Part shown: positions 5,181 through 27,853 of the stretch, piece by piece
Layout: each line of letters starts with the position of its first letter
Position numbering within the stretch: the first letter of the stretch is position 1
Source: Deltaproteobacteria bacterium UBA4427
GTDB taxonomy: Bacteria > Myxococcota_A > UBA9160 > UBA4427
Assembly (NCBI GenBank): GCA_002390675.1
Contig: DGPZ01000106.1
Location: 48,737-112,736 of the forward strand
Reading direction: 5' to 3'
Length of the DNA stretch: 64,000 nucleotides
Notes under the pieces: generated by a model
Seen by the model: only the letters and a program-made list of their open reading frames with translations
Database searches by the model: none
What the model was told of the DNA's origin: nothing
Made by a program: the position numbers and the translations under genes

Positions 5181-5323
5181 AGGTCCCCCTTGCGAGCGCA
5201 CATTACGTGAAGGGCCGGCCTCCGGCAATCTTTGTGCGGTGGGAGTCGGATATCTTCGCGTCGAACTTTGGGGGCGAGCCGATGTTTAGGTCGTTGACGA
5301 CTACGCGCTAGCGCCATTTCGGT

Positions 5324-7933: not shown

Positions 7934-8716
7934 ATGGGCTTAGAGCCGGAAGAAGTACGGGCCATGCGCGAGAAAGGCAAAAAAATAGAGAGATCGGGGG
8001 AACTCGATTTTGAGGAGGGGGGTCTTTCAGCGGAGAGGCAGGATATGACAGCAGAGATCGTTGAGAGAGGACCGATGGTGAGTGGCACGAACCCGCTGGC
8101 GCGCGATCGAAACGCGCCGCGCGTGGTGATTGAGGATCCCGATAGGGAGCTGATCGTGCGATGGCAGGCGGGCGATGAAGCCGCCTTCGAAGAGCTCATC
8201 CGGAAACATGAATCACGCGTCTACCGCTTGCTTTATCGCATGATGGGGAGCAAGGAAGACGCGGAGGACCTCACCCAAGAGACCTTCTTGAGTCTGCATA
8301 GACATGGACATCGCTTCCGTGCCGAGGCGCGCTTTTCGACCTTTGTCTATCGGGTCGCGGCGAACGCCGCGCTCAATCGCCGCCGTTCCTATGGCCGCGG
8401 TCGTGCAAGAGTCGACAAGCTCAAGACGCGTCAGGCAGCCGGTGATGATCTGCCAAGCTCGCCGCGCAACCCAGAAGAGGCTGCACTTGGGATCGAAATC
8501 ACGGGCCACGTCCGTGAAGCACTTGACACGCTCTCGCCTTCGCTCCGTATGCCGGTCATCCTCTATGACATCGAAGGTCTCGCCTACGGCGAGATCGCCA
8601 AGGTGCTCGGCATTGCCGAAGGCACTGTCAAATCCAGGATTCATCGCGCGCGCCAAGCGCTGCGGGAACAGCTCAAAGAAATGCTGGGATCCAAGACTTC
8701 GACCGAGGGTTCTTAA
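7934..8716 (+). CDS. ECF-type RNA polymerase sigma factor (sigma-70 family, group 4)
   Basis: Region 2 reads LIVRWQAGDEAAFEELIRKHESRVYRLLYRMMGSKEDAEDLTQETFLSLHR. Region 4 HTH reads GLAYGEIAKVLGIAEGTVKSRIHRARQAL. The start is uncertain: in-frame ATGs at 7934, 8045 and 8075. Confidence 0.85.
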   Translation: MGLEPEEVRAMREKGKKIERSGELDFEEGGLSAERQDMTAEIVERGPMVSGTNPLARDRNAPRVVIEDPDRELIVRWQAGDEAAFEELIRKHESRVYRLLYRMMGSKEDAEDLTQETFLSLHRHGHRFRAEARFSTFVYRVAANAALNRRRSYGRGRARVDKLKTRQAAGDDLPSSPRNPEEAALGIEITGHVREALDTLSPSLRMPVILYDIEGLAYGEIAKVLGIAEGTVKSRIHRARQALREQLKEMLGSKTSTEGS

Positions 8717-8718
8717 GC

Positions 8719-9834
8719 GTGAGCAATTTTGGCGTTAGAGGCTCGAACATGAATGAAGATTCGCAGACGCCACAGCCTGTGGAGCTTCGATGTAAGCAGG
8801 TGAAGAATCACTTGCCCGATTACCTCGAAGGTGATCTTTCGCTGGATGACCGAGCTTCGGTCGACGAGCATATTGGCCAGTGCGCCGACTGTGCCATCGA
8901 AGTCCACGAGATGGAAGAGACGGTTCTCTTACTTCGAGGCCTCCCCGAGCCCGAAACACCGCCGATGATCGCGGCGAATGTGATGCGTCGAATTCGCTCG
9001 GGTGAGACTGAGCGGGGTTTCTGGGCGCGCGTTGGACGGGGCTTTGCCTCGGTCTTCGAACCGAGTTTTGTGCTGCCCGCTTCGGCGATGGCGGTGGCGG
9101 CCTTGGCAGTGGTAACGATTCAATCTCCGAGCCAACTCGGAGTTCCCGCTTTTCAGAACGCCGAGACGAGCGGCGCAGGGATCGCTGGGGCTGTCGTTGC
9201 GCCTTTGCGGAGTGACTCCGCTGGTGGAAGGCTGCCGTTGTCAGCAGATGCCGAGACGGGTGGTGCTCGGAACTTCGTGCAGACACCTCTGACGCAAATA
9301 TCCGCGGAGACACGTCGTGACGTTGTTGTCGCTTCTCCATTTACTCGGGGCTTCGTCGTTCAGGGCGAAGGAGACGCGCCGAGCAATTTCCGAACTCCCG
9401 TGATGGCAGGCGGCGCTCCACCGGCATTCTTTGCGGAGCGTCCGGCTCCCCTCATTGAGCGACCTTCTTCGGGAACCCGCGTGCCGCGTTCTGGATTCGC
9501 CGGTGCAGTGCCTGTTGCTGGGCCTGTGCCCGTAGGCGCACTCGAAGCGGTCCGGTCAAAACGTGGGGGTTCAGTTTTATCGGAAGCGGTCAGCTCCGGC
9601 GGCGAAGATGCCCGGGACGGATGGATCGCAATCGGTCTTCAGCGCCCCACCGAGTTTGCACGTTTTCTGAATGCCAAGACCTTGGCCGAACAAGAACTTT
9701 GGGTCGAACGACTCGCGCAGCGAGCCGAGGCTCGCGGGCTGCTCGTTGAATTGGTTGGTGCACTCGATTCGAGTGGTGATGCCGCGGCTGGCGTTCTTGC
9801 CGGAGATTTTCGCGCAGCTCGAAAATCTCGCTGA
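8719..9834 (+). CDS. anti-sigma factor, zf-HC2 type, single-pass membrane protein
   Basis: It lies immediately downstream of the ECF sigma gene. N-terminus CKQVKNHLPDYLEGDLSLDDRASVDEHIGQCADCAIEVHEME carries the H-x3-C-x2-C motif. One TM segment (SAMAVAALAVVTI). Alternative ATG at 8749 with AGAGG upstream. Confidence 0.7.
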   Translation: MSNFGVRGSNMNEDSQTPQPVELRCKQVKNHLPDYLEGDLSLDDRASVDEHIGQCADCAIEVHEMEETVLLLRGLPEPETPPMIAANVMRRIRSGETERGFWARVGRGFASVFEPSFVLPASAMAVAALAVVTIQSPSQLGVPAFQNAETSGAGIAGAVVAPLRSDSAGGRLPLSADAETGGARNFVQTPLTQISAETRRDVVVASPFTRGFVVQGEGDAPSNFRTPVMAGGAPPAFFAERPAPLIERPSSGTRVPRSGFAGAVPVAGPVPVGALEAVRSKRGGSVLSEAVSSGGEDARDGWIAIGLQRPTEFARFLNAKTLAEQELWVERLAQRAEARGLLVELVGALDSSGDAAAGVLAGDFRAARKSR

Positions 9835-12669: not shown

Positions 12670-15177
12670 ATGGCAAGGGCGGCAGCAAAGTCGCGGGCAA
12701 AGAAAGGCGGACGCACAGCGTCGGCCGGACGAGATCAGGACGAGGCCGACGGCCCGATTCTGATTGCCGCGGGTTCTGAGATTGCAGGACTTATCCTGAT
12801 AGGGCTTTCCTTGCTCGCAACGCTCGCGCTAGCGACGTATGCGCCTGAGGACCCGATCGCGAAGCTCGTCGAAGTCCGAAACAGCGCAGGCCCCGTTGGT
12901 GCGACCCTTGCGGGTTGGCTTCTGGGCGCTTTCGGCTCGGGGGCGATCGTCCTCGTAGCTTCCTGCGCTTTTCTTGGCGGTCGCCTCGTGATGAGCCTCG
13001 GTTTCCCGGGACTCTTCTCTCGCTTCTGGATTGGCGCTGCATTGCTTATCCCAACGGTCGCGCTGCTTCCGCCGCTGCTTTTTGATCTCGCGCCGGCAGC
13101 GATACCTTGGATCGAGCCAGGCTGGCTAGGAGGAAAGGGCGCTTCGACTCTGACGCTGCTTTTCGGGAATGCTGGTGCCCTGGTACTGACGAGCCTTTTT
13201 CTGGTCGTCAGCGTGTTGTCGCTGACCGGAATTTCGACGGGTACAACCCTGACCGCGATTGGCCAGGGCGCCACCTGGACCTTGGGTTATTTGATGGCCT
13301 TCGGTGAGTGGGTTTATGCTGGGCTAGGAACGGCGCTCGATGCACTCGTCCGTGGTATTCAATCGACAGTCGCAGCACTTAGGCGCTCGATCACACAGGC
13401 TCGTGAGGCGATTACCTCGATTTCGGTTCGCCGAGAACAGCGTGCGCGTCGCGAGCGTGTGCAAGAACGCCGCGAGCCGGAGGTGAGCTTCGAGGAAGAG
13501 CTGCGCGACCAGGAAGAAGCGGCAGTGCCGGTCAAGGTGCTGGCCCCGCCGGAAGAGGTTCCAGAGCCGCCCGTGCGTCGTCTCCGTGCCGGGGAAGAAC
13601 CGGACATCGTCGACCACGGCGAAGAGCGCAAGCGCTTGAAGAAGCCCGAACAAGAAGCTTTCCGCTTTCACGAGGGCGGCCCAGCCGGCCCCTTTAAGCT
13701 GCCCGATTCATCGATCTTTATGTCGCCGCCCGAAGGCGGTCGCAAGTACGATCGAGATTCGCTGCTCATGAATTCGAAGATCCTCGAGAAGAAGCTCGCG
13801 GATTTCGGGGTGACCGGTCGTGTGGTGCGTGTGCATCCCGGACCCGTGATCACTATGTACGAATACGAGCCGGCTGCGGGTATCAAGGTCAACAAGATCG
13901 TGGGCCTGACCGACGATCTGACAATGGCGCTGCGTGCAATGTCGATTCGTATTATCGCACCGCTGCCGGGGAAGTCCGTCGTCGGGATCGAAGTTCCTAA
14001 TCCCGAGCGAGAGATCGTCTACCTGCGCGAAATGTTCGAGTCCGAGAGCTTTCGTAAGAGCACGGGCGTGCTGTCTGTCGCGATGGGCAAGGACATCTTT
14101 GGTAATTCCGTAACTTCAGATCTGGCTAAGATGCCGCATTTGCTAGTCGCCGGTTCTACCGGTACGGGTAAGTCCGTCTTCTTGAACTCGTTCCTTTGCT
14201 CGCTGTTATGTCGTGCGACGCCGGATGAGCTCAAGCTCTTGCTGGTTGACCCGAAGATGCTGGAGCTGTCGATTTATGACGGGATTCCACATCTGATCGC
14301 CGATGTGGTGACGAGCCCTAAGCGCGCTGCAGCGGCGCTGCAAGGCGTCGTACGTAAGATGGAAGAGCGGTATCAGATGATGTCCGCGACGGGCGTTCGC
14401 AATATCGATCAGTTCAATGAGAAGGCTCGTAAGAAGCTCTACGAGGGGGAAGAGTCCTTCCGCCTCAAACAGAAGCCTGGCCAGACGGAAGGCGAAGAGA
14501 TCGAGTGGCAGGTGCTGCCTTACATCGTCGTCGTGATCGACGAGCTCGCCGACCTCATGATGTCCTCGGCGAAGGAGGTAGAAGAGTCGCTTCAGCGCTT
14601 GGCGCAGATGGCGCGTGCCTCGGGCATCCATCTCGTGCTCGCTACCCAGCGGCCGAGTGTCGACGTCTTGACGGGGGTCATCAAGGCGAACTTCCCCGCA
14701 CGCGTGTCCTTCCAAGTGTCGAGCGGCATCGACTCGCGAACGATTCTGGACCAAAAGGGTGCGGACGATCTGCTCGGGATGGGCGACATGCTCTTCCTCC
14801 CGCCGGGAACCGCGCTGTTGCAGAGAATTCACGGTCCTTTCGTGAACGAAGACGAAGTCCACGACCTCGTAGCATTCCTAAAGGAACAGGGACGACCCGT
14901 TTTCGACGAAGATCTGGTGCGAGCGGCCGTGGAGGCAGAGAAGAGCGAGAATCGCGGCGAAGACGAAGACGAGATGTTCGACCAAGCGGTCGAAATCGTC
15001 GCGACGACCCGCAATGCTTCAATCTCCTATGTCCAGCGCCGTCTCAAAATCGGTTACAACCGAGCGGCTCGGATCATTGAGCAGATGGAGCTAGACGGAA
15101 TGATTGGGCCCCAGGTTGGTTCCAAGGGGCGTGAAGTCCTGATGCCTGTACCTACGGTCGAGGACGAGCTCCTCTAG
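12670..15177 (+). CDS. ftsK: DNA translocase FtsK
   Basis: 835 aa. N-terminal TM helices and a charged linker, then a motor with Walker A VAGSTGTGKS and Walker B VVVIDELADLM. The C-terminal gamma domain reads ISYVQRRLKIGYNRAARIIEQME. Confidence 0.95.
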   Translation: MARAAAKSRAKKGGRTASAGRDQDEADGPILIAAGSEIAGLILIGLSLLATLALATYAPEDPIAKLVEVRNSAGPVGATLAGWLLGAFGSGAIVLVASCAFLGGRLVMSLGFPGLFSRFWIGAALLIPTVALLPPLLFDLAPAAIPWIEPGWLGGKGASTLTLLFGNAGALVLTSLFLVVSVLSLTGISTGTTLTAIGQGATWTLGYLMAFGEWVYAGLGTALDALVRGIQSTVAALRRSITQAREAITSISVRREQRARRERVQERREPEVSFEEELRDQEEAAVPVKVLAPPEEVPEPPVRRLRAGEEPDIVDHGEERKRLKKPEQEAFRFHEGGPAGPFKLPDSSIFMSPPEGGRKYDRDSLLMNSKILEKKLADFGVTGRVVRVHPGPVITMYEYEPAAGIKVNKIVGLTDDLTMALRAMSIRIIAPLPGKSVVGIEVPNPEREIVYLREMFESESFRKSTGVLSVAMGKDIFGNSVTSDLAKMPHLLVAGSTGTGKSVFLNSFLCSLLCRATPDELKLLLVDPKMLELSIYDGIPHLIADVVTSPKRAAAALQGVVRKMEERYQMMSATGVRNIDQFNEKARKKLYEGEESFRLKQKPGQTEGEEIEWQVLPYIVVVIDELADLMMSSAKEVEESLQRLAQMARASGIHLVLATQRPSVDVLTGVIKANFPARVSFQVSSGIDSRTILDQKGADDLLGMGDMLFLPPGTALLQRIHGPFVNEDEVHDLVAFLKEQGRPVFDEDLVRAAVEAEKSENRGEDEDEMFDQAVEIVATTRNASISYVQRRLKIGYNRAARIIEQMELDGMIGPQVGSKGREVLMPVPTVEDELL

Positions 15178-15212
15178 GGGCTCTGCTGACGAAAATTCCT
15201 GCGAGGTGTCGA

Positions 15213-15947
15213 GTGGCTAGGCGGACGGGTATACGCGCAATCACGGTCGCGATTCTAATGAGCTGCATCTCGTCTGCGGCGATCGCGGGGGAGGTGGCTC
15301 CGGCCGCGCCTGTGGTGAAGGATTCAGCTTGTCAGAAAGGACAGGCCGAAACGACGGCGCGCACCGTACAGGCTCGCTATGACGGAATTCGAGATCTCGC
15401 AGCGGTCTTTGAGCAGGAGAGCCAGTCTACGACTTTCGGCGGTTCCGCATTGATGGACGACACGGTGAAGCGTGGCAACGTGGTTTTCTCGAAGCCCGGG
15501 AAGATGCGTTGGACGTACGGTGATCCCGAGCCGAGTGTGGTTGTGAGTGATGGCTCAACGCTTTGGATTTATGATGTTGCCGGGGCCACGGCGACAAGGC
15601 TTGACGTGACGGCTGGCTATCTAACGGGCGCGGCACTGCAGTTCTTGCTCGGGGATGGGAATATCCTGGAGGAGTACGATGTCTCCGCTTTGGAATGCTC
15701 AGCTGCACAGGTTGTTCTGGATCTTCTGCCGCTTGAAGACGCGACCTATGAACGGCTTGGCCTTGTGGCTGATCCGAAGACAGGCGACATCCTCGCGACC
15801 TCCCTCGTCGATCTCTTTGGCAATGTCACGGTCATCCGCTTTGAGGATGTAGCCGTCAACCAATCGCCGGATGCGAAGATCTTCGTGTTTGAGGCGCCCG
15901 AGGGCGTCGAGGTCATCAACTACGCCGCGATACCGGGAGCGAACTGA
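15213..15947 (+). CDS. lolA: outer-membrane lipoprotein carrier protein LolA
   Basis: Signal peptide (AITVAILMSCISSAAIAGE), then VQARYDGIRDLAAVFEQES...VVFSKPGKMRWTYGDPEPSVVVSDGSTLWIYD, a LolA-like pattern. Confidence 0.8.
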   Translation: MARRTGIRAITVAILMSCISSAAIAGEVAPAAPVVKDSACQKGQAETTARTVQARYDGIRDLAAVFEQESQSTTFGGSALMDDTVKRGNVVFSKPGKMRWTYGDPEPSVVVSDGSTLWIYDVAGATATRLDVTAGYLTGAALQFLLGDGNILEEYDVSALECSAAQVVLDLLPLEDATYERLGLVADPKTGDILATSLVDLFGNVTVIRFEDVAVNQSPDAKIFVFEAPEGVEVINYAAIPGAN

Positions 15948-17230
15948 GTGCACTGCGCTGGCGTGCCCAAAGGGGCGCGGCCTGCCTGAGCGCCTCCCGT
16001 TCGGCGCCGAGCGGCATAGTGAGTATTTGCGTTCCGTCTGAGCCGTCCACCGCAATCCAGTGCGAAGCGGGGGAGGCGCAGTCTACACGTGTTCGGAATG
16101 CGTTTTCGCGCGCTGGGATACCGGCACAATTTCGACGATATCGTCTGATTCTCGGCGGGTGGGTCGCGTGGCTGCCATATGAAGCGGCACCCAAGTGGCG
16201 AAACCTTCTCATTCGGGCAGGTGACTCACTCGTTACCGGCCCACCTCCCGCCGAGCTCTGTCCAGCGCCGGCCCGACGCTGGCGATCGTACAAACTGCAC
16301 CGATCGGAGCCGCGATGTTCGGATATGAACGGTTAAACCATTCTAAAACAGGAGTTTATGGAATTTTCTGCCGAACTAATCCGGTTGACACCTATCCATC
16401 GGTCGTTAGACTCGAAACAGCAAAAAGAGCAGCTATTTCGATGGGTTTCAGCTTTATCCGCCTTCTCGACACCTAACACCGAACCAATTATTAGGTAGAA
16501 GCTACGCGGTTCGATCACAGTTTGTTGAGAGGCGGAGCCGGGGTCGAGTTCTTTGGACGCTGGGTTAACGCAAGGCGGCCGGCTGGGATCTATCTGGGCC
16601 GGTTAGAGCGATAAGAGGTCGTTGAGACACCTTAAAATGCGTCTGAAGGCCAGAAATGCAATCGAAGTCGATCCGTCGTTTAATAGACGCGAGGCGGAGA
16701 GAGAAGGAAGAGCGTACTTGGAGAGGGGCGCCGAGAGCGGTACCGCCCTGGAGGAAGGGAACCCGGAAGGAATGTTTCGCCTTTCCGGCACGATGACGCG
16801 ACAGCGAATTCCCACTCACAACGTGGTCGGATCCCGGCCGCGAGCACTTCGTTATCGCGACCAACTCCACTTGCTTCCGTGGCATTATCTGACTTCGAGT
16901 GCCGAACCCAGCTCCGCAGGCGAATTCTCGGGCCACTCGCTTAGCGCACTGAATTCGATGACGGAGATAGCTGTTTTTAAACATCTTTATCGTTCGGCCG
17001 CTATGTTTCCTCCAAGCGCGAAACGTGCTTGTTCGCCAGCTCTCGGTCTGCGAAGCAGGCTGATGATTGCGGCTCAAGAGCGGCGGAACTCTTCATTCGA
17101 GAAGGTCCAATCCCCCGGGTTCCTTCGAGCGGCAACTTACCTGCAAGCGGCTCTGTCAAAGAGTTTGGATTCCGTCGGAATGTCATTGCGCGGGATCTGG
17201 GTAAAAAATGTGTGGTGGACTGGCAAAAAG

Positions 17231-17246
17231 CGGCACAGCCTTTGCA
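17231..17246 (+). promoter_or_regulatory. candidate sigma-54 (RpoN) -24/-12 promoter upstream of mpa
   Basis: cGGCACagcctTTGCa matches TGGCACG-N4-TTGCW. GG is at 17232-33 and GC at 17244-45, with exactly 10 nt between them. It is oriented toward mpa (ATG 17388). A perfect palindrome ATTCCGTCGGAAT lies at 17169-17181. Confidence 0.35.
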
Positions 17247-17387
17247 GTACAGGATGGCTGAGGGATGGGACGACCCCGACTCCGCAAGAAGTTGCGGAGC
17301 TGAGGGAGGTCCGGACGGAGTCAAAGCGAAATCGGATCGAATTTCGTGGAGCCCCGGCCAAGCAATGAGCAAGGAGGAGACAGCGCA

Positions 17388-19298
17388 ATGAGCGAACATG
17401 ATTCGGATTCTGGATCGCAGGGCCGGAAGGGCTTCGTGCGAGACGTCATGCGGCGCATCAATCCAACTCAGACTGGCGCCCCAGGCGCACGCACCGAGGA
17501 CGACGAGCTGGACACAGGTTTCCCCGGCGGTGCCGCCGGTGGGCATGGGCTCGATCCCGGACGACCTGGTACGGGCCGTTCGGAGAGTGAAGCTGAGCGA
17601 CTCCAAGACGCCATGAACTTCTTTGGCAGTGACTCTAATGAGTTCCGACACCGTCTCGACCGGATGCTCGCGGACTTTGAAACGCTGCGACGGCGATACG
17701 ACCAGTCGCGCACGCAGCATCGTGATGCCGAACGGCAGAACGAAAAGCTCGTGGGAATGCTGCAGGAGGCGAAGCAGCAGATCGAACTCTTGAAAGAAGA
17801 GGTCGACAAGCTCTGCGCCCCGCCGAACACCTACGGCGTGTTCCTCCGTGCGAATAAGGACGGAACGAGCGAGATCCTGATGGACGGTCGGCCCATGCGG
17901 GTCAACGTGCATCCGAACCTGGATCCGTTCCAGCTCGATGAAGGCCAGTTCGTGGTCCTCAACGAGGCGTTCAATATTATTGAAGGTGCCGAATACACCC
18001 AGCGCGGCGAAGTATGCACGGTGGTCGATTCGATTTCGGATTCGCGTGTGATCGTCAGCGGTCATACCGACGACGAACGTGTCGTGACGCTTTCGGAGCC
18101 GCTGCGGCGCGAATCGATCAAGGTCGGTGACTCGCTGCTCGTGGACATGCGAACGCAGTACGCGTTTGAGAGGCTGCCTAAGTCTTCGGTCGAAGAAGTG
18201 ATGCTGGAAGAAATTCCGGACGTGACCTACGAAGATATTGGTGGGCTGGGCGACCAGATCGAGATCCTGCGGGATTCGGTCGAACTGCCTTACCTCCACC
18301 CGGAAGTCTTCGCCGAACATCAGCTCAGCCCGCCTAAGGGCATCCTTCTCTACGGACCGCCCGGTTGTGGCAAGACGTTGATCGCTAAGGCGGTCGCGAA
18401 TAGCCTGGCCAAGCGGATCGAATCACAGACGGGGAAGTCGACCACGGCCTACTTCCTGAACGTGAAGGGACCAGAGCTGCTTAACAAGTACGTCGGTGAG
18501 ACGGAGAGCAAGCTCCGCGACGTCTTTAAGAAGGCGCGTGAGAAGGCGAGCCAGGACGTGCCGGTCGTTGTCTTCTTCGACGAGATGGACTCGCTTTTCC
18601 GCATGCGCGGTTCGGGTGTCTCCTCGGACATGGAAGCGACCGTCGTGGCCCAGTTCTTGTCGGAGATCGATGGTGTTGAGTCACTGCAGAACGTGATCGT
18701 GATTGGCGCGAGTAACCGACAGGATCTCATCGATCCCGCGGTGCTTCGCCCGGGACGGCTCGACCTCAAGGTTAAGGTGTCTCGCCCGGATCGCGAATCC
18801 GCGCAGCAGATCCTCGAGAAGTACCTCACGCCGGATCTGCCACTTCACAAAGACTTCATGGCTAAGTACGGCGAGGACCGCAACGTCGCATGTCGGAAGA
18901 TGATCGCTGAGGTCGTCGACAACATGTACTCCGAGGGAGAGGAGAACAAATTCCTCGAAGTGACCTACGCCAAGGGCGAACGTGAGATCTTCTACTTCAA
19001 GGACTTCTCTTCGGGAGCGATGCTCGAGAATATTGTGGCACGTGCCAAGCGGAAGGCTGTAAAGCGCTTCCTTGGGGACGGCGAGCACGGTATTACGGCA
19101 GCTGACATGATCGAATCGGTGCGAGAGGAGTTTAAGGAGAACGAAGATCTCCCGAACACCACGAACCCGGACGATTGGGCGCGCATCTCAGGACGAAAGG
19201 GCGAACGAATCATCAACGTGCGAACGCTCATCACCGGAATGGAGCGTAAAGAAGAGAGCATCGAGAACGTCTCGAGCGGCCAGGGACAGTACCTCTAG
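17388..19298 (+). CDS. mpa: proteasome-associated AAA+ ATPase (Mpa/ARC)
   Basis: N-terminal coiled coil (EKLVGMLQEAKQQIELLKEEVDKL), Walker A YGPPGCGKTL, Walker B VVVFFDEMD, and a C-terminal ...GQGQYL (the Mpa-type GQYL docking tail). ATG 17388 has AAGGAGGAG 8-16 nt upstream, so I prefer it to the track's GTG 17346. Confidence 0.93.
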   Translation: MSEHDSDSGSQGRKGFVRDVMRRINPTQTGAPGARTEDDELDTGFPGGAAGGHGLDPGRPGTGRSESEAERLQDAMNFFGSDSNEFRHRLDRMLADFETLRRRYDQSRTQHRDAERQNEKLVGMLQEAKQQIELLKEEVDKLCAPPNTYGVFLRANKDGTSEILMDGRPMRVNVHPNLDPFQLDEGQFVVLNEAFNIIEGAEYTQRGEVCTVVDSISDSRVIVSGHTDDERVVTLSEPLRRESIKVGDSLLVDMRTQYAFERLPKSSVEEVMLEEIPDVTYEDIGGLGDQIEILRDSVELPYLHPEVFAEHQLSPPKGILLYGPPGCGKTLIAKAVANSLAKRIESQTGKSTTAYFLNVKGPELLNKYVGETESKLRDVFKKAREKASQDVPVVVFFDEMDSLFRMRGSGVSSDMEATVVAQFLSEIDGVESLQNVIVIGASNRQDLIDPAVLRPGRLDLKVKVSRPDRESAQQILEKYLTPDLPLHKDFMAKYGEDRNVACRKMIAEVVDNMYSEGEENKFLEVTYAKGEREIFYFKDFSSGAMLENIVARAKRKAVKRFLGDGEHGITAADMIESVREEFKENEDLPNTTNPDDWARISGRKGERIINVRTLITGMERKEESIENVSSGQGQYL

Positions 19299-19503
19299 CG
19301 GCTAGAGAGCGGTTTCGAGAGCGGAATAGCAACACTCAGTCTGTTAGTGCGAGTCGGCGGTTGAACGCCGAGCGTGAAATAGAGCGCGGCGCAGCCGCCG
19401 ACTCGACGACAGGCGGAAACACATTTTGGATCAACTCTTCCCGATTTAGGGGAGACCCTCAAATTTCCTTGAAGGGCGAGAGCCCAGGAGCTTCGAAACC
19501 GAG

Positions 19504-20985
19504 ATGGCTATCCCTACTGTCATGGGCACAGAGATTGAGTTCGGGATCATGGTCAAGAATGACCCTGACTTCGATCCGATTTCGTCCTGCGTCCTGATAG
19601 TGAACGCCTATCGCGAAGATCCAGATGGCGAAATTCTCTGGGACTACGATCAGGAAAACCCGCTTGCAGATGCGCGTGGCTTCCAAGTTGAGGGCGAGAA
19701 GTATACGCCTAACCAGCAAGAAAATATTGCACGAAACAAGACGCTGATTAACGGCGCACGCTACTACGTCGATCACGCGCATCCCGAATACGCGAGCCCG
19801 GAAGTCACGAATGCACGTGATCTCGTGATTCACGAAAAGGCCGGCGAGCGAGTCATCGAAATCAGCCGTCGTGAGGCGAACCAGCTTCTCCCGCCCGGTG
19901 CGCAGATGCTGATTTACAAGAACAACAGCGACCGCAAGGGCAACAGCTATGGCTGCCACGAGAACTATCTCATGGATCGCCGCACGTCCTTCAAGCGAAT
20001 CGTCGAGCCCCTCCTTCCGTTCTTTGCAACGCGCCAGATCTGGTGCGGCGCCGGTAAGGTAGGCAGCGAAAACCGCAATCATCCCTGCAACTATCAGCTA
20101 TCCCAGCGCGCGGACTTCTTCGAGACGGAAGTGGCGCTGGATACGATGGTCAAGCGACCCATCGTGAATACCCGTGACGAACCGCACGCAGACCGGGAAA
20201 AGTATCGCCGACTCCATGTGATCGTGGGTGATTCAAATATGTCGGAATACACGATTTATCTGCGAAACGGCGTAACTGCTTTGATTCTGTCGATGATCGA
20301 AGACGGCGCGATTACGAAGGACCTTTCACTTCGCGATCCGGTGAAAGCGATTCGCGAAGTTTCCCATGACCTAACGCTTGCTCACGAGCTGACGATGGAT
20401 GACGGTACGTCTCGGACGGCTCTGCAGATCCAACAAGATTTCTACGAGATGATGCTGGCGTATGCGTCGTCGCGATCTCTCGATCCGATTCAAAAGGATG
20501 TCATTCAGAAATGGGGCGAGGTGCTCGAAGCCCTCGCTCGCGATCCCATGGAGCTCGACACCCGAATCGACTGGGTGATGAAGAAGCGCCTGATCGAAAG
20601 CTATATGGATCGCAAGGATCTCCTCTGGGATGCTTCACAGGTGCAGATGCTCGATCTCCAGTACCACGATTCGCGGCCGGACAAAGGTCTCTATTACTTG
20701 CTCGAACGACAGGGCAAGGCAGAGCGCATCGTGACCGACGAAGAGATTGCGCGCGCGGTCTATAATCCACCTAGGGACACCCGGGCATATTTCCGTGGTG
20801 AATGCTTGCGACGCTATCCGAGGGAAGTGTTCGGCGTGAACTGGGATTCGATCTCGTTTGGACTCGGGGATGATTCCGTGAAGCGAATCATGATGGCGGA
20901 GCCTTTGAAGGGCACGAGTGAAGTTGTCGAGGAGCTGCTCGATCGGTCGGGTACGGCTGCGGAGCTTCTCGAGAATATGACTTAG
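19504..20985 (+). CDS. dop: Pup deamidase/depupylase Dop
   Basis: PafA/Dop-family N-terminus MGTEIEFG and the conserved NTRDEPHADREKYRRLHVIVGDSNMSEYT. Compared with the paralogue at 23048 it carries an extra ~40-aa insertion (EDPDGEILWDYDQENPLADARGFQVEGEKYTPNQQENIARNKT) at the position of the Dop loop. It occupies the dop position, between mpa and pup. Confidence 0.85.
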   Translation: MAIPTVMGTEIEFGIMVKNDPDFDPISSCVLIVNAYREDPDGEILWDYDQENPLADARGFQVEGEKYTPNQQENIARNKTLINGARYYVDHAHPEYASPEVTNARDLVIHEKAGERVIEISRREANQLLPPGAQMLIYKNNSDRKGNSYGCHENYLMDRRTSFKRIVEPLLPFFATRQIWCGAGKVGSENRNHPCNYQLSQRADFFETEVALDTMVKRPIVNTRDEPHADREKYRRLHVIVGDSNMSEYTIYLRNGVTALILSMIEDGAITKDLSLRDPVKAIREVSHDLTLAHELTMDDGTSRTALQIQQDFYEMMLAYASSRSLDPIQKDVIQKWGEVLEALARDPMELDTRIDWVMKKRLIESYMDRKDLLWDASQVQMLDLQYHDSRPDKGLYYLLERQGKAERIVTDEEIARAVYNPPRDTRAYFRGECLRRYPREVFGVNWDSISFGLGDDSVKRIMMAEPLKGTSEVVEELLDRSGTAAELLENMT

Positions 20986-21078
20986 CAAAGACTTTTTCCC
21001 GTACGCCTTTGGTGTACGGACAGGAAGGCACTGGAAGCTGATTATTTTCGATCAGTCAAAGAGCCGGAGGTAGACGAG

Positions 21079-21369
21079 ATGGCGAACTTCATCACGATCG
21101 ATCGAATACGACGCAGCCGCGACGGTTCATCCGGAGATGCAGCTAATGATCTTCCGCTCTATATGGCGGCGGGGGAGCAGAAGCAGAAGCAAAAGGGTGG
21201 CGGCGAAGGCGGAGGTGAGGGCGGCGACTCCGAAGGTGGCCAGAAGATGGCTGAGAAGGGCGAGGACCTTAAAGAGGAGATGGACAATCTGCTCGATGAG
21301 ATCGATACGGTTCTTGAAGAGAATGCGGAAGAGTTCGTCAAGAATTACGTCCAGCGCGGCGGCGAATAG
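21079..21369 (+). CDS. pup: prokaryotic ubiquitin-like protein Pup
   Basis: C-terminal half EEMDNLLDEIDTVLEENAEEFVKNYVQRGGE matches the Pup Mpa-binding helix and ends in GGE. ATG 21079 has GGAGGT 8 nt upstream. The internal ATG 21163 (MAAGEQKQKQKGGG...) gives a canonical 68-aa Pup. Confidence 0.9.
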   Translation: MANFITIDRIRRSRDGSSGDAANDLPLYMAAGEQKQKQKGGGEGGGEGGDSEGGQKMAEKGEDLKEEMDNLLDEIDTVLEENAEEFVKNYVQRGGE

Positions 21370-21477
21370 CATCGCTTTCCTTTGCGCCGTTCGGTGTGGA
21401 CAGGAAGAGTCGCCGTGAATATCGCCGGTTAGCGATATGTAATTTCGAGGACGTAGTTCTTCGAGTAGAACATTTTA

Positions 21478-22290
21478 ATGTTTTCTGAGGGGGGAACAGT
21501 GCCGCTTCAAGGCAGCTACCAGGGTTCGAGTTTTTTCGAGCTCCTACAAGTCGAACACGATCATCTCTTGCCGGACCTTTCGGCTTGGGGAGAAAGTGCG
21601 GCTGCGATGATTCCGCACGGGACCACCGTTCTTACTATGAAATTCGGAAGCGGCGTACTCGTCGCGGGCGACCGGCTTGCGACGGCAGGGCATTCAGTTG
21701 CTTCGCGTGACGTCGTGAAGGTCTTCGAGACGGATCCATATTCGGTGATGGCAATTTCGGGCGCGGCTGGGCCGTGTATCGAGATGGCTCGCATTCTCTC
21801 CGTCGAGCTCGAGCACTATGAAAAGCTGGAAGGCGAAGCGCTCGAACTCGAGGGCAAGGCGAACAAGCTGTCTCAGATGATCCGGGCGAATCTGCCGGCG
21901 GCGATGCAGGGCCTCGCGGTCGTGCCGCTCTTTGCAGGCTTCGACACACGTCGAAAGACGGGACGCCTTTGGAAATTCGACATTACGGGCGGTCGCTATG
22001 AAGAGGGTGAGTTTGATGCGACGGGGTCCGGTGGACTCTATGCGCGGGAATCGCTGAAGCATGGCTGGCGTGCCGACCTCGGCCGTGACGAAGCGGTGAA
22101 GGTTGCTGTTGCAGGGCTCACGGCTGCGGCTGATGAAGACCGTGCGACAGGCGGCGTTGATCTCGAACGCGGCATTTATCCGATCATTAAGATCTGCACG
22201 AGTGACGGACACGAGGACGCGACCGAAGAAGAAATCGCCGCGTGCTACCGATCTATTCTCGAAGCGCGCGCTGCGGGAGGGAACCTCTAA
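21478..22290 (+). CDS. prcB: 20S proteasome beta subunit PrcB (with propeptide)
   Basis: A propeptide of about 49 aa is followed by HG/TTVLTMKFGSGVLVAGDRLATAG, containing the Thr1 nucleophile. An alternative GTG at 21499 is preceded by GAGGGGGG. Confidence 0.9.
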   Translation: MFSEGGTVPLQGSYQGSSFFELLQVEHDHLLPDLSAWGESAAAMIPHGTTVLTMKFGSGVLVAGDRLATAGHSVASRDVVKVFETDPYSVMAISGAAGPCIEMARILSVELEHYEKLEGEALELEGKANKLSQMIRANLPAAMQGLAVVPLFAGFDTRRKTGRLWKFDITGGRYEEGEFDATGSGGLYARESLKHGWRADLGRDEAVKVAVAGLTAAADEDRATGGVDLERGIYPIIKICTSDGHEDATEEEIAACYRSILEARAAGGNL

Positions 22291-22991
22291 TGTCGATGCC
22301 GTTCTACGTTTCACCGGAACAGGTAATGGCCGATAAGGCCGAATTTGCTCGCAAGGGCATCTCGCGCGGCAAGTCGATCGTTGGGCTCGAACACCAGGGG
22401 GGTGTCCTCCTGATGGCTGAGAACGCGACGGCGCTTTATAAGGTTGGCGAGATCTATGATCGCCTAGCCTTCGCAGGCGTTGGCAAGTTCAGCGAGTTCG
22501 ATCAGCTTCGAAAGGTCGGCGTCCGGTTCGCGGATACCAAGGGCTATGCCTACAGCCGCGAAGATGTTCGCGGTCGTGGTCTGGCTAATGCCTTTTCCCA
22601 GGTAATCGGCGACGTTTTCACGCGGGAGAATAAGCCGCTAGAGCTCGAGATCATCGTGGCCGAAGTTGGCGATGACCGATATGAGGACCATCGCAATAAT
22701 TCGCTCTACGTGATCAAGTACGACGGCTTCATCAGCGATCATCCGGGGTTCTGCGCAATTGGTGGAAACGTCGAAGACGTCGAGTCAGTACTCCAAACTG
22801 ACTATCGTGATGGAATGCCGGTTGGGGACGCCGCTAAGCTGGGGCTTCGCGCATTGAGCGCCGGCGCAGAACGAAGCTCTGAGCTGGACGCGGGTAGTCT
22901 CGAAGTTTGTCTTCTGGATCGGGAACGGACGGGTCGCAAGTTCTGCCGCCTTTCTGCCGATGAAGTTCAAGGTATGCTGGACGGTAGCTAG
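22290..22991 (+). CDS. prcA: 20S proteasome alpha subunit PrcA
   Basis: MSMPFYVSPEQVMADKAEFARKGISRGKSIVGL is collinear with the actinobacterial PrcA N-terminus. ATG 22290 overlaps the prcB stop (TAATG). Confidence 0.9.
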   Translation: MSMPFYVSPEQVMADKAEFARKGISRGKSIVGLEHQGGVLLMAENATALYKVGEIYDRLAFAGVGKFSEFDQLRKVGVRFADTKGYAYSREDVRGRGLANAFSQVIGDVFTRENKPLELEIIVAEVGDDRYEDHRNNSLYVIKYDGFISDHPGFCAIGGNVEDVESVLQTDYRDGMPVGDAAKLGLRALSAGAERSSELDAGSLEVCLLDRERTGRKFCRLSADEVQGMLDGS

Positions 22992-23047
22992 CGGCGAACT
23001 CTCGCCCGAAGCTCGTCGGTGGCCCGCGGAAGGCGGTCAGGCTCAAC

Positions 23048-24454
23048 GTGCAGAAGCGCATCTACGGTATCGAGACCGAGTTCGGAATCATCTTCACGCC
23101 CGAGGGCAGGAAGACGCTCCCCGTTGAGAAGGCAATTCGCTTTCTCTTCGAGAAGCTCATCACGACCGAACATTTCCTGAATGTATTCCTTGAGAATGGC
23201 GCCCGGTTCTATCAGGACACGGGTTGTCATCCCGAGTATGCAACTCCCGAATGCATCTCGCCGAGCCAGCTGACGATCTACGACAGAGCCGGTGAGCGGA
23301 TCCTCGAGGATCTTCAGATCTATGCTGAAGAGAAAATCCGCGAAGAGCGCATTCCTGGCAAGCTATCGATCTTCAAGAACAACACGGACTTCGTGGGGAA
23401 CAGCTACGGCTGTCACGAGAACTACCTCGTCGATCGCGACGTAGATTTCTACTACCTCGCCGAACAGCTGATTCCGTTCCTCGTGACGCGCCAGATCTAC
23501 ACCGGCGCAGGGAAGGTCTTCCAGACCCAGGACGGCATTCACTACTGTGTTAGTCAGCGCGCCCAGCATATCTATCAGAAGATTTCGGGCACGACGACGA
23601 ACGATCGATCGATCATTAATACCCGAGATGAACCGCATGCCGACCGAGAGAAGTATCGTCGGCTGCATGTGATCGTCGGTGACTCGAATATGAGCGAGTA
23701 CACCAACTTCATCAAGGTGGGGACGGCTTCGGTCGTGCTCCAGATGATTGAAGACAACTACATCAACAAGGACTTCACGCTTCGCAACCCGGTCAAGGCG
23801 ATCAAGGACATCACCTACGATGCGACTTGTAAGCGAAAGCTCCGCCTTGATAATGGTCGCGAATATTCGCCGATAGAGATCCAGCGCGAATACTGCGAGA
23901 TGGCCCAAAAGTACATTGAGCAGTATCCCGTCACGGAGGACCACAAGAAAGCGGTCCATATGTGGCAGCACGTGCTCGACTGCCTCGATACCGACCCGAA
24001 TAAGCTCGATCGCCAGATCGACTGGGTCATCAAGCGAAAGCTGATCCAGAGTTGGGTAGACAAGCATGAGACCACTTGGGACGATCCGCGGGTTTTGATG
24101 CTCGATCTTCAGTACCACGACATTCGCCGCGAACGCAGCCTCTTCTACTTGATGGAACGCAAGGGTGCGGTTGAGCGCTTGTTCACGGACGAGCAGGTCG
24201 ATGCAGCGAAGGCCACGCCTCCGCCGGATACCCGTGCGAAGATGCGCGGCGAATTCATCAAGCTCGCTCGTGAGAACTCGATCCAGTACGACCTCGACTG
24301 GTCGAATATTCGACTGGGCAATCTGCTCAACGTGCGGGTGATCTGTAATAACCCGTTTGAGACGGACACCGAAAAGGTCGCCGAACTCGTTCGCACGATT
24401 CAGAAAACGAATCTGCGAAAGACCTCGCTCTCGAAGCTTGTTATTCAGAGCTAG
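23048..24454 (+). CDS. pafA: Pup-protein ligase PafA
   Basis: MQKRIYGIETEFGI..., GNSYGCHENYL, and NTRDEPHADREKYRRLHVIVGDSNMSEYT. It lacks the Dop-loop insertion present in the paralogue at 19504. GTG start. Confidence 0.85.
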   Translation: MQKRIYGIETEFGIIFTPEGRKTLPVEKAIRFLFEKLITTEHFLNVFLENGARFYQDTGCHPEYATPECISPSQLTIYDRAGERILEDLQIYAEEKIREERIPGKLSIFKNNTDFVGNSYGCHENYLVDRDVDFYYLAEQLIPFLVTRQIYTGAGKVFQTQDGIHYCVSQRAQHIYQKISGTTTNDRSIINTRDEPHADREKYRRLHVIVGDSNMSEYTNFIKVGTASVVLQMIEDNYINKDFTLRNPVKAIKDITYDATCKRKLRLDNGREYSPIEIQREYCEMAQKYIEQYPVTEDHKKAVHMWQHVLDCLDTDPNKLDRQIDWVIKRKLIQSWVDKHETTWDDPRVLMLDLQYHDIRRERSLFYLMERKGAVERLFTDEQVDAAKATPPPDTRAKMRGEFIKLARENSIQYDLDWSNIRLGNLLNVRVICNNPFETDTEKVAELVRTIQKTNLRKTSLSKLVIQS

Positions 24455-24490
24455 GCGCTGCGATTCGCCATTGGCCGGACACGCTCATCC

Positions 24491-24511
24491 CCGTCGGCCC
24501 CGTACCGACGG
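24491..24511 (+). terminator. hairpin after pafA (possible operon terminator, no U-tract)
   Basis: CCGTCGG-ccccgta-CCGACGG: perfect 7-bp stem, 37 nt after the pafA stop. Confidence 0.3.
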
Positions 24512-25033
24512 TGGCGGGAGAGGTTGTTCAAATCTCCGGCGAATCCCTCGAGATATGGGTAGAACTTGATGCTGAGGCCGGTGAAACCGCTTAACCGTTT
24601 ATGCGGTCGACGAGAAAAGTCCCTATTGCGGGGATGATTGCCGGCGAGTTCCTGTACTAGCTGAGTTGCAACGATAGGGATGGCGCCTGAAAAGATTTCG
24701 GCTTCACCTAGGACGCGCGCTGCGAGTTGAAAATCGATGCTCAGATGAGGCCGAGTTAGGCGCTACCATCGAATTTCGAGGACGTGGACGATGGTGAGGG
24801 CATTTCAGTAGGCCCGCCTTTGGCATCTGGTCAGAAGGCTTTTGCGCCAGGCGGAGGTGCCTGCTGGTTCTCCCTGAGACCATTTTCTTGATGGTGTGAC
24901 GCCGCTCAGCCGCGTCCGGGGAAAAATCCCTTATTCAGGCCGCATTCGTACTCAATCTCTGCGCGCCTTTGCCGATTTAACAGGACGGGACTGCTTTGCA
25001 CTCTTCCTGCGGATCCCCGAATCGGAGCGCTCC

Positions 25034-26186: not shown

Positions 26187-26831
26187 TCAGTCGGGAGAGA
26201 GCGCCGTCAGGGCAAGCTCGATCGCCATGCCTTCGTCGCCTTCGAGCTCGACTTGACCCGCAAGGAAAGCGTCCTGAGGGTCGAGCTCGCCCGCCCGCAA
26301 TTGGGAATAGGTCTCAGCGTTAATTCTGATTGTCGCGCGAGGTTCGTTCGTGTGCGTGTCGACCCCGAAATGCGCGAAGAGAACGAAGCCGCCTACGCCA
26401 ACGCGCTCGAATGTGAGGCTTCCTGCAAGTGCACGTAGACTCCGGACCCGGCTTGACGTCAGCCGCATGTCGTCGCCTAACCCAGCAAGCCCACCAAGGA
26501 AACCGAGCAGCGAATCTCCGCATTCACGCCTTAGGTTTTCGAAGTCCGAGAGCGCGTGTGCCAGAATCATAAAGGGCGGATAGGAGGGTGCTTCGGCTGA
26601 GCTCATTACGCCGCGCTCGATGTCATAGGCGAAGCGTTCGAAAGAACCGCCCGCGTCAACCTGCACGACGATCGAGCTTCGCACGGCCTCCATCTCTTCG
26701 AGGAGTCGAGTTGCTTCCGGATCGTCTGCAGCCACGCTGCGTTGTCGAGCGAGTGTCGCATTGAACTGATCTGGCACGCGTGACGCATAGAACGCCCGCG
26801 CTGCACTGATTAATTCCGCCGCATCACTCAC
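26187..26831 (-). CDS. SCP2 sterol-binding-domain protein
   Basis: The C-terminus LRAGELDPQDAFLAGQVELEGDEGMAIELALTAL matches the SCP2 motif (xLxPxxAFxxGxxxxxGDxxxAxxL). Its start overlaps the mltG stop. Confidence 0.6.
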   Translation of the reverse strand: MSDAAELISAARAFYASRVPDQFNATLARQRSVAADDPEATRLLEEMEAVRSSIVVQVDAGGSFERFAYDIERGVMSSAEAPSYPPFMILAHALSDFENLRRECGDSLLGFLGGLAGLGDDMRLTSSRVRSLRALAGSLTFERVGVGGFVLFAHFGVDTHTNEPRATIRINAETYSQLRAGELDPQDAFLAGQVELEGDEGMAIELALTALSPD

Positions 26832-27853
26832 CGCCGTCGCCGCCGCTTGCGCTGGAACTCGTCGACATTTGCTGCGTGTTCGCGATAGGTCTCGGCGAAA
26901 ATATGCGTCCCGTCGTTTCGCGAAACGAAGAAAATATAAGGCGTGTCGGCGGGCTCTAGGATTGCGCGAAGCGCATCTCGCCCGGCGCTCGCAATCGGTC
27001 CAGGCGGCAGCCCTTTGATCTTGTAAGTGTTGTACGGGTTGCTTCCGTCTAGAAGATGGATCCGTTTGATATTACCGTCAAAGTTCTTGATGCCGTAGAT
27101 CACGGTTGGATCCGTTTCGAGTCGCATACCTCGTTTTATTCGGTTGAGGAAGACTGCGGCTATCAAGGGCCGCTCGTGCGCCGCGCCAGTTTCCTTCTCG
27201 ACGATCGAGGCAAGAGTCGTGTGCTCGCGCATTGTTAGGTTGGATGAACTGGGGTCGGGGACGAGGTCGTGGTAGACGCGCAGGAACTCGGACACCATCG
27301 CTTGTGCGATGCGACCTTCGGGCACGCCGCGCGCGAAGCGGTACGTGTCGGGGAAGAGGTAGCCTTCGAGGGTCGGGCCTTCGACGCCGTAGCGAGCGGG
27401 GGAGGCGGGATCGAAGACGACTTCGAGGAAGCGGTCACGATCGGCTAGTCCTGCCGCCGCGAGGCGATCCGCGATTTCAGTCGCACGAAGCCCTTCCGGG
27501 ATGACCACCGGATGCGTCTGGACCCGGCCACGCGTCAGCGCTTCAAAAATCTCCGGCGTGGACTGATCGGAAGAAAGTTCGTATTCGCCAATCTTTAGCT
27601 TCGAGGCGAGGTCTTCGGACTGCGCGAACCAGCGCGCTACTCGAGCATTGCGAATGATGCCTGCGGATTCGAGGGTGGCCGAGACGTGCCAGAACGAATC
27701 CCCTGGATCGACTTGAAAGGCCATTATGTGCGGTTCGCTTCCGTTCTCTGCAACAGGCGAGAGCGCGCGGTCGAGCCAGAGCCATGCGCCGGCTGCGCCA
27801 GCTATCGCAACGGCACCTAATACGAGTAGGCCTATGAGGGCTCGCTTGATCAA
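26828..27853 (-). CDS. mltG: endolytic murein transglycosylase MltG (YceG family)
   Basis: N-terminal TM helix, then VIPEGLRATEIADRL, ASIVEKET, and YNTYKIKGLPPGPIASAGRDALRAILEP. Confidence 0.9.
   Translation of the reverse strand: MIKRALIGLLVLGAVAIAGAAGAWLWLDRALSPVAENGSEPHIMAFQVDPGDSFWHVSATLESAGIIRNARVARWFAQSEDLASKLKIGEYELSSDQSTPEIFEALTRGRVQTHPVVIPEGLRATEIADRLAAAGLADRDRFLEVVFDPASPARYGVEGPTLEGYLFPDTYRFARGVPEGRIAQAMVSEFLRVYHDLVPDPSSSNLTMREHTTLASIVEKETGAAHERPLIAAVFLNRIKRGMRLETDPTVIYGIKNFDGNIKRIHLLDGSNPYNTYKIKGLPPGPIASAGRDALRAILEPADTPYIFFVSRNDGTHIFAETYREHAANVDEFQRKRRRRR

Follow-up and report, generated by a model that had tools for sequence, protein, structure and literature searches.

A Probable Pup-Proteasome Operon on the Core Chromosome of Uncultured Diderm Myxococcota, with a Predicted Sigma-54 Promoter

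Introduction

Six co-directional genes in the order mpa, dop, pup, prcB, prcA and pafA, located at positions 17388-24454 of a 64,000-nucleotide stretch of DNA from Deltaproteobacteria bacterium UBA4427 (assembly GCA_002390675.1, contig DGPZ01000106.1; the whole stretch is termed “the window” hereafter), probably constitute a complete canonical Pup-proteasome system (PPS) operon on the core chromosome of an uncultured lineage of diderm Myxococcota. Judging from sequence comparisons, we put the probability of this reading at about 0.78. The comparison with related loci shows vertical inheritance of the operon from an ancestor common to at least 80 of the sampled species.

Pupylation and bacterial proteasomes have been studied almost entirely in Actinobacteria, and the searchable literature otherwise mentions only “Proteobacteria” draft genomes here and there, plus the case of Plesiocystis, which lacks a proteasome. 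The PPS and its gene layout are already known; its fixed presence in a Myxococcota lineage appears to be undescribed in the searchable literature, where we found no paper that brings together pupylation and Myxococcota, or that links it to RpoN. A 2026 preprint on the class UBA9160 (“Vahlivitia”) of the GTDB phylum Myxococcota_A, which leaves proteasomes unmentioned, lists UBA4427 among the genera of this class. New here are the host lineage, a predicted sigma-54 promoter, a distal conserved island, an extension of Pup, and the conservation and C-terminal tail of PafA.

Relatives were collected by a search with Dop against one genome per GTDB species, which returned 551 relatives; the best 80 of these (Dop identity 65-91%) were taken, and 16 window proteins were placed onto them to give a synteny map. 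Gene families were called with NCBIfam equivalog models at their curated cut-offs and with Pfam as a second library, and 56 open reading frames (ORFs) of the window were scanned for protein families. The loci total 2.72 Mb, both strands of which were used to count sigma-54 motifs, and counts upstream of mpa refer to 68 loci. Two more distant loci served as outgroups: L081, a deeper relative with low G+C content (PafA identity 64%), and L082, a locus from Nitrospinota.

The Six Genes and Their Products

An initial annotation, made from the letters of the window, had described a complete and compact six-gene cassette with spacers of 205, 93, 108 and 56 nt, a TAATG overlap between prcB and prcA, and pafA placed directly behind prcA. 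The ORF map and the family models verified the coordinates, the spacers, the overlap and the genes, and the cassette is indeed complete, compact and closed by pafA. The genes are as follows.

17388-19298, plus strand: mpa (arc), proteasomal AAA+ ATPase, 636 amino acids; TIGR03689, 744 bits (cut-off 505)
19504-20985, plus strand: dop, depupylase/deamidase, 493 amino acids; TIGR03688, 572.5 bits (cut-off 492.3)
21079-21369, plus strand: pup, 96 amino acids; TIGR03687, 59.6 bits (cut-off 41.45); PF05639, E = 1e-17
21478-22290, plus strand: prcB, 20S beta subunit; TIGR03690, 286.5 bits (cut-off 191.9)
22290-22991, plus strand: prcA, 20S alpha subunit; TIGR03691, 277.3 bits (cut-off 139)
23048-24454, plus strand: pafA, Pup ligase, 468 amino acids, GTG start; TIGR03686, 549.6 bits (cut-off 551.3)

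Pfam agrees with NCBIfam for all six genes, and every hallmark motif that had been named beforehand for Mpa, the Dop loop, the GGE end of Pup, Thr1 of PrcB and the PafA core was found. Mpa harbours a Walker A motif GPPGCGKT (residue 323), a Walker B motif VVFFDE (residue 394) and the KYVG pore loop, and it ends in GQYL. Its N-terminus is variable and of low complexity, the domains Prot_ATP_ID_OB_N and Prot_ATP_ID_OB_C are detected, and the alignment with the Mycobacterium tuberculosis Mpa structure 7px9 (E = 4e-195) reaches the last residue. The ATG start at 17388 is backed by a conserved ribosome-binding site, GGAGGAGA, and by a conserved MSEHDSDS N-terminus. Dop aligns over its full length with the Acidothermus Dop structure 4b0r (E = 5e-157), including the loop region at residues ~30-75, and structure-sequence alignments place the Dop-loop insertion in Dop and not in PafA. 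PafA matches the Corynebacterium glutamicum PafA structure 4b0t over residues 2-449 (E = 1.5e-106).

PrcB comprises a 48-residue propeptide followed by Thr1, with Asp17 and Lys33 in place; in the alignment with the mature beta chains of Rhodococcus and M. tuberculosis, their residue 1 falls on Thr49 of the precursor. PrcA matches the M. tuberculosis PrcA structure 3h6f (E = 3e-62).

By homology with the characterized systems, PafA would use ATP to ligate the gamma-carboxylate of the C-terminal glutamate of Pup to substrate lysines. A hexamer of Mpa would capture Pup by its coiled coils and thread it through the KYVG pore, while its C-terminal GQYL would dock onto the PrcA ring, such that substrates are fed to the PrcB Thr1 sites. 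Dop would remove Pup again and, in those relatives whose Pup ends in GGQ, would also deamidate it.

The spacers inside the operon show no conservation among relatives. Together with the two conserved islands upstream of mpa (see below), this fits a single regulated operon forming one transcription unit. The 205-nt spacer between mpa and dop contains a 10-bp inverted repeat at 19353-19405, GAGTCGGCGG ... CCGCCGACTC, the sequence of which is not kept in relatives; the repeat could be a stabilizer, a processing site or a partial terminator.

A Conserved Setting in the Core Chromosome

The cassette occupies the same chromosomal site throughout the sampled relatives. The common setting is ftsK-lolA, followed by mpa-dop-pup-prcB-prcA-pafA and then by mreB...mltG-ruvX. 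Gene order is the same in 80/80 loci, 77 of which are strictly colinear, and the other three merely have split matches to prcA or pafA. All six genes are found in 70 of the 80 loci, and the remaining ten are cut by contig ends. On the 5' side, lolA lies immediately upstream of mpa in 67/67 loci and is itself preceded by ftsK; on the 3' side, 50 of 53 loci have mreB within 2 kb of pafA, with mltG and ruvX coming next. The setting is also shared by complete chromosomes (OZ252299.1, OZ245015.1 and OZ245002.1).

The flanking genes have diverged considerably across the 80 loci, with a median identity of 47% for LolA and 60% for FtsK (range 48-82%), and these strongly diverged flanks indicate that the arrangement of the cassette is old. 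The deeper relative L081 carries ftsK-lolA, three further genes and then mpa-dop-pup-prcB-prcA-pafA-mltG-ruvX...pgpA-cinA-recA-T2SSE. The 3' side of the window, pgpA-cinA-recA-T2SSE-alaS, represents the same setting as in L081. The initial annotation had named vertical inheritance in a clade with an already described arrangement as an outcome that would speak against its reading, and the present results largely point that way, in that the gene order is standard and the inheritance vertical.

The host is a diderm bacterium that is neither actinobacterial nor a member of the Nitrospirota, as its closest genomes are labelled Myxococcota or Deltaproteobacteria. All 80 relatives are uncultured metagenome-assembled genomes labelled Myxococcota, Myxococcales or Deltaproteobacteria, apart from a few bins with a Spirochaetaceae label. 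The latter (L001, L007, L013, L017, L030 and others, mostly ‘binchicken’ TPA assemblies) carry the NCBI label Spirochaetaceae or Spirochaetales despite their syntenic loci, and these names are probably an artefact of taxonomic labelling. The class of the relatives is probably UBA9160 of the GTDB phylum Myxococcota_A, an assignment based on the NCBI labels and on one name (UBA4427).

The Upstream Region and Its Predicted Promoters

The gap between lolA and mpa is 1.44 kb long and non-coding, and it contains two conserved islands. Its elements are as follows.

17232-17246, plus strand: predicted sigma-54 (-24/-12) promoter GGCACAGCCTTTGCA, GGCAC-N5-TTGCA, from motif and conservation
17257-17387, plus strand: predicted 5' leader, containing the hairpin CCGCAA...TTGCGG as well as the ribosome-binding site given above, from the alignment; fold energy z = -2.0
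16293-16448, plus strand: distal non-coding island, from alignments; recovered by nhmmer from the lolA-mpa gap of 31 loci

The proximal island contains the only match to GGCAC-N5-TTGCW on either strand of the 64-kb window. In the alignment of relatives the GG, GC and TTGCA positions are invariant and adjacent bases drift, yielding a consensus of (G)CGGCAC-R-N3-Y-TTGCA with unconserved flanks. The looser pattern GG[CT]A[CT]-N5-TTGC[AT] has 70 matches in the 80 loci, 65 of which precede mpa by no more than 250 nt, the median distance to its start codon being 80 nt; of the remaining five, one is also upstream of mpa (in L067), and four are elsewhere. The element thus precedes mpa in 65-66 of 68 loci, and its enrichment at this position is far beyond chance. 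Transcription would start about 130 nt upstream of mpa, near 17257. The initial annotation regarded the regulation of the cassette as uncharacterized, which is no longer wholly so given a conserved predicted sigma-54 promoter.

The distal island harbours a sigma-70-like sequence, TTGACA-N16-TAGACT, at 16385-16412 (10/12 match), which is kept in at least 27 species and is accompanied by an AAAC-N5-GTTT palindrome on its 5' side and by TTCAA/TTCGA direct repeats on its 3' side. Measured upstream from the sigma-54 element, the island usually lies at a distance of 245-320 nt, and in the subgroup of the window at about 850 nt. The ~780 nt between the two islands are unconserved even in close relatives and far shorter in more distant species. 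In close relatives the distal island also contains the near-palindromic TGCACCGATCGGAGCC, the TGCACC half-site of which we take to be NtrC-like. The distal island may function as promoter, as enhancer or in both capacities. The two outgroups lack the sigma-54 element and have a sigma-70-type promoter directly before mpa. As an evolutionary scenario, the clade may have tandem promoters: the ancestral sigma-70 promoter would have been retained distally, as a basal promoter or co-opted enhancer, and the sigma-54 promoter would have been added within the clade.

It is also conceivable, albeit rather unlikely, that GGCAC-N5-TTGCA is the site of another factor and that the operon is transcribed only from 16385-16412 via a long leader. 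The good match and wide retention of the distal sequence are in line with this proposal, as are the sigma-70-type promoters that drive mpa in the outgroups. A conserved sigma-54 element implies the need for RpoN and an enhancer-binding activator, and no gene for either was found in the window or around the cassette in the 80 loci; likewise, translating both the window and these loci in six frames revealed no GAFTGA motif. However, the conserved positions are exactly the GG at -24 and the GC at -12 of sigma-54 promoters, with a fixed 10-bp spacing, the TTGCA and drifting surroundings, and 65-66 of the 70 occurrences in 2.7 Mb fall in the 250 nt before mpa. Moreover, a sigma-54 promoter and a distal sigma-70-like promoter are mutually compatible. 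A sigma-54 promoter in front of mpa, with or without a second one further upstream, therefore appears preferable.

Several other candidates for the function of the gap were rejected. A hidden gene is contradicted by tblastx against the 80 loci, in which all frames are conserved and contain stops and codon periodicity is absent. The window's gap contains no remnants of the radical-SAM and DksA genes that occupy this place in L081. A small ORF beginning with ATG at ~16360 after AGGAG was discarded, its start codon being unconserved. A small RNA transcribed from the distal promoter is not supported either, as conservation ends ~45 nt after the -10 element and a terminator-like hairpin is seen in one locus only. 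An Rfam scan of the 1.44-kb gap (E <= 1) gave no match, and a search for an activator-binding site by k-mer enrichment over the 320 nt preceding the sigma-54 element led back to the distal island alone.

Pup, PafA and the Fate of Tagged Proteins

The C-terminus of the window's Pup, ...YVQRGGE, aligns with Pup chains in the Protein Data Bank (PDB), and an ending in GGE means that deamidation is not needed for ligation. The start codon at 21079 has a strong ribosome-binding site (GGAGG-8 nt-ATG), and an internal ATG at 21163 has none. The 28 residues before the internal Met (21079-21162), MANFITIDRIRR...LPLY, constitute an N-terminal extension. Its motif, MA[N/R/T]FI...P[I/L]P[F/I/L]Y, is kept in many species, and other species have a short Pup. 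Several extended Pups are devoid of the internal Met, such that the long form must be translated. The tag of the Nitrospinota locus L082 is also long (99 amino acids) and ends in GGE. All 80 relatives have a tag with the ending RGGE or RGGQ; the two endings alternate between close relatives, and the deamidase function of Dop is therefore presumably retained in the clade.

PafA is the most conserved gene product of the neighbourhood. Across the 80 species its median identity amounts to 87%, compared to 81% for MreB, 75% for Dop, 73% for Mpa, 64-65% for PrcA and PrcB and 60% for FtsK. Its probable assignment as a ligase has strong sequence support, although the TIGR03686 score narrowly misses the curated cut-off: this score is 142 bits above the protein's own score against the Dop model (407), PF03136 matches with E = 3e-151, the Dop loop is absent, and the protein groups with PafAs in a neighbour-joining tree. 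At the C-terminal end (residues 391-468; 24218-24451) amino acids are 91-98% identical, and 98% over residues 421-468, with synonymous sites varying freely, which indicates that the constraint acts on the protein. The tail, ...VRTIQKTNLRKTSLSKLVIQS (also ...IQKTNLRKTSLSKLVIQS), is invariant and specific for the clade and does not occur in actinobacterial PafAs; other diderm PafAs possess different C-terminal extensions with aromatic or hydrophobic ends (KYGYLL, FRFY, KFFF).

Three related species (L058, L061 and L060) carry roughly 1 kb of additional DNA at the prcA-pafA junction. The insert of L058 contains an opposite-strand gene for a 290-amino-acid protein (13351-14223, minus strand), and that of L061 a 216-amino-acid ORF (13394-14044). 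pafA is thus not always directly appended to prcA, and in L058, L060 and L061 it may have a promoter of its own.

Whether tagging in this lineage mainly serves degradation deserves consideration. Pupylation might instead act chiefly as a reversible regulatory mark or in another non-degradative role, with the proteasome being of minor importance. Proposals of this kind exist for actinobacteria that have no proteasome, as well as for Plesiocystis and Rhodopirellula with their membrane-anchored Pup ligases. Proteasome-independent Pup systems have been described in a myxobacterium (Iyer 2008, PMC2588565). The retention of Dop next to a Pup that ends in GGE suggests that depupylation is under selection, and PafA is far more conserved than PrcA and PrcB. 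Yet, prcB and prcA are positioned between pup and pafA in 70/70 untruncated loci, Thr1, Asp17 and Lys33 as well as the GQYL of Mpa are intact, and the PafA of the window is of the soluble type, without a transmembrane insertion. A predominantly non-degradative role is thus quite improbable, and proteasomal degradation of pupylated proteins is the favoured view.

Composition and Origin of the Cassette

The initial annotation proposed a minimal, self-contained cassette, plausibly acquired by horizontal transfer. A recent arrival, e.g., as part of a genomic island, would agree with the patchy occurrence of pupylation outside Actinobacteria (PMC2588565, PMC7947786), with the long non-coding gaps on both sides of the cassette (1.44 kb and 0.58 kb) and with its base composition: in tetranucleotides it is the strongest outlier among the 7-kb stretches of the window (z ~3), and its G+C content is 55-57% compared to 59-60% elsewhere. 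The composition check suggested in that annotation has been run, however, and did not reveal the signature of a recent transfer. G+C content at third codon positions (GC3) equals that of the flanks, and the shift stems from low G+C at codon position 2 (GC2). The synonymous-codon score, trained on non-cassette genes, is slightly above average for the cassette genes (z +0.4 to +1.9), i.e., host-like. K, E, Y, N and D are enriched in the encoded proteins, and A, G, L and P are depleted. The tetranucleotide deviation consequently reflects amino-acid content and not codon choice, and a foreign composition was discarded as an explanation.

The position of the cassette argues in the same direction. 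Insertion site and gene order are identical in the 80 species, the FtsK proteins of which are only 48-82% identical, and recur in L081; the borders contain no integrase, tRNA or mobile-element gene, and the upstream gap accommodates conserved regulatory elements. A recent transfer is thus contradicted and has a very slim chance of being correct. Any horizontal origin would be ancient and would have proceeded via a PPS lineage common to Nitrospinota, Tectomicrobia/Entotheonellia and Ca. Moduliflexus; an ancient transfer into the ancestor of the clade is plausible.

A joining of an actinobacterial, Nitrospirota or other PPS-bearing piece to a diderm contig by faulty assembly or binning, which the probable metagenomic origin of the assembly and the long non-coding stretches at both junctions might suggest, can practically be dismissed, because 80 assemblies made independently in different studies, complete chromosomes included, show the same two junctions, neither GC3 nor codon use breaks at them, and PafA is merely 39-47% identical to actinobacterial PafAs.

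Neighbouring Genes of the Window

The genes around the cassette are those of a core chromosome with a diderm envelope. Core functions encoded in the window further include ssb, recA, alaS, ispG, prs, rplY, pth, rpsR, rplI and dnaB, and envelope-related genes are located at the following positions.

15213-15947: lolA, by family model
4401-5228: lgt, by family model
42097-42912: bamD/YfiO, by family model
26828-27853: YceG/MltG, the sole lytic transglycosylase among the scanned window ORFs
25034: most likely start of mreB, leaving a 580-nt gap after pafA

Of the envelope genes listed earlier, lolA, bamD and lgt are confirmed by family models. The SLT transglycosylase is not: no SLT-domain protein occurs among the 56 window ORFs scanned, and the transglycosylase present is MltG/YceG. 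In agreement with the initial annotation, no pafB- or pafC-like gene follows pafA, the WYL family being absent from the same 56 ORFs, and the next gene is mreB, 580 nt on. The non-coding flanks of the cassette are unusually long (15948-17387 and 24455-25033), and in L006, L008, L034 and L043 the distance between pafA and mreB amounts to 3-4 kb. About 8 kb 5' of the cassette, an extracytoplasmic function (ECF) sigma factor gene (7934-8716) is followed by a gene for a zf-HC2 anti-sigma factor (8719-9834), with no evident link to the PPS.

Weighing the Evidence and Implications

A number of points weigh against the view that these genes form a canonical and sigma-54-controlled operon of UBA9160. 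It is built on sequence comparisons. PafA scores 1.7 bits under the cut-off of its own family model, no significant terminator hairpin was found after pafA (fold z = +0.3), and the PafA tree discussed below is a rough one, made by neighbour joining and poor in labelled taxa. The class assignment, drawn from NCBI labels and the one name UBA4427, belongs here, too. As to the promoter, the element carries a C where the textbook consensus has a T at -26, rpoN and enhancer-binding protein genes are missing from the regions covered, and no obvious activator-binding site is present within ~200 nt of it.

A more ambitious reading would hold jointly that the PPS is a universal core trait of the whole Myxococcota class and that it represents, rather than a sporadic import, a distinct diderm lineage of the system to which Nitrospinota, Tectomicrobia and Ca. 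Moduliflexus also belong, with Pup and PafA features of its own and, in the Myxococcota clade, sigma-54 control. We consider this combination tentative and more doubtful than not. Its lineage features would be the N-terminally extended Pup and a PafA tail under extreme purifying selection, and the sigma-54 rewiring might render the operon nutrient- or nitrogen-responsive, in parallel to the PPS of M. smegmatis in nitrogen starvation. Should the diderm lineage turn out to match the actinobacterial one in depth, an origin in Actinobacteria followed by sporadic transfer would have to be reconsidered.

The known mechanism of the PPS is left unchanged by these findings. They widen the range of known stable hosts by an abundant, uncultured group of diderms with at least 80 species, and the conserved sigma-54 element provides a concrete and testable regulatory hypothesis for a Gram-negative PPS. 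The hyper-conserved tail of PafA and the extended N-terminus of Pup offer starting points for structure-function studies of how substrates are selected and how Mpa is engaged.

Comparison with Known Pup-Proteasome Systems

With the PPS of M. tuberculosis and other actinobacteria the window's operon shares the same six full-length proteins in the same relative order, the GQYL end of Mpa, the PrcB propeptide followed by Thr1, the C-terminal helix and GG[EQ] end of Pup, and a Dop loop that is present in Dop and not in PafA. The order of pupylation loci has been termed ‘rigidly conserved’ (Barandun 2012, PMC3511204). The differences concern host, layout and sequence. In contrast to the actinobacterial pafA-pafB-pafC arrangement, the host is diderm and pafA directly follows prcA without pafBC; Pup ends in GGE instead of GGQ and bears an N-terminal extension of ~28 residues; and PafA, at 39-47% identity, has the extra invariant C-terminal tail. 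A predicted sigma-54 promoter precedes the operon; Actinobacteria are not known to have sigma-54, and hence no such promoter would be possible there.

A Pup-like tag termed UBact, which is said to be encoded in Gram-negative phyla alongside homologues of Mpa, Dop/PafA and the 20S proteasome, reportedly ends in R[T/S]G[E/Q]. Compared with this definition, the window's tag, which ends in QRGGE, resembles actinobacterial Pup (KGGQ) and passes the Pup models, and it is therefore filed as Pup and not as UBact.

Among PafA homologues in a collection clustered at 90% identity, the clade itself, at 70% identity or more, is followed by a group at 61-65%. Clusters of the latter are labelled Nitrospinota and Ca. 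Entotheonellia, and a cluster at 73-74% is labelled Gemmatimonadota. An exhaustive search of 50%-identity representatives yielded a single full-length match above 50% (62%), in a cluster with Ca. Moduliflexus flocculans. The next matches are at 45-47%, the best of them labelled Ilumatobacteraceae (Acidimicrobiia), and Dermatophilus is at 39-40%. The Dop-rooted PafA tree places the Myxococcota clade, with very short branches, inside a diderm group that also comprises L081, Moduliflexus, Entotheonellia and Nitrospinota and is separate from Actinomycetota.

Outside Actinobacteria, Pup-proteasome loci of Leptospirillum (Nitrospirota) go back to De Mot 2007, as far as that work is cited in PMC3511204, and the Leptospirillum system was probably derived from Acidimicrobiales (Barandun 2012, PMC3511204). 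The Nitrospinota locus L082 displays a compact six-gene order identical to that of the window, and differs from it in its flanking genes and sigma-70-type promoter. L082 also harbours a third gene of the Pup-ligase family (14639-16006, minus strand; 455 amino acids, 54% identical to the window's PafA), located 4.6 kb downstream of its PPS operon beside peroxiredoxin and Fe-S cluster genes.

Plesiocystis pacifica, which belongs to the Myxococcota sensu lato, likewise has neighbouring genes for Pup and a PafA-family ligase; there the ligase is membrane-anchored and no proteasome genes are linked (Iyer, Burroughs and Aravind 2008, PMC2588565). While the Plesiocystis ligase contains an insertion of four transmembrane helices, the window encodes a soluble-type PafA along with the full proteasome and Mpa. 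The PafAs of Nitrospinota, Entotheonellia and Ca. Moduliflexus are the closest in kind, with 61-65% identity, the same tree group and a C-terminal extension. In contrast to these other diderm systems, the cassette of the Myxococcota clade is fixed between ftsK-lolA and mreB-mltG-ruvX.

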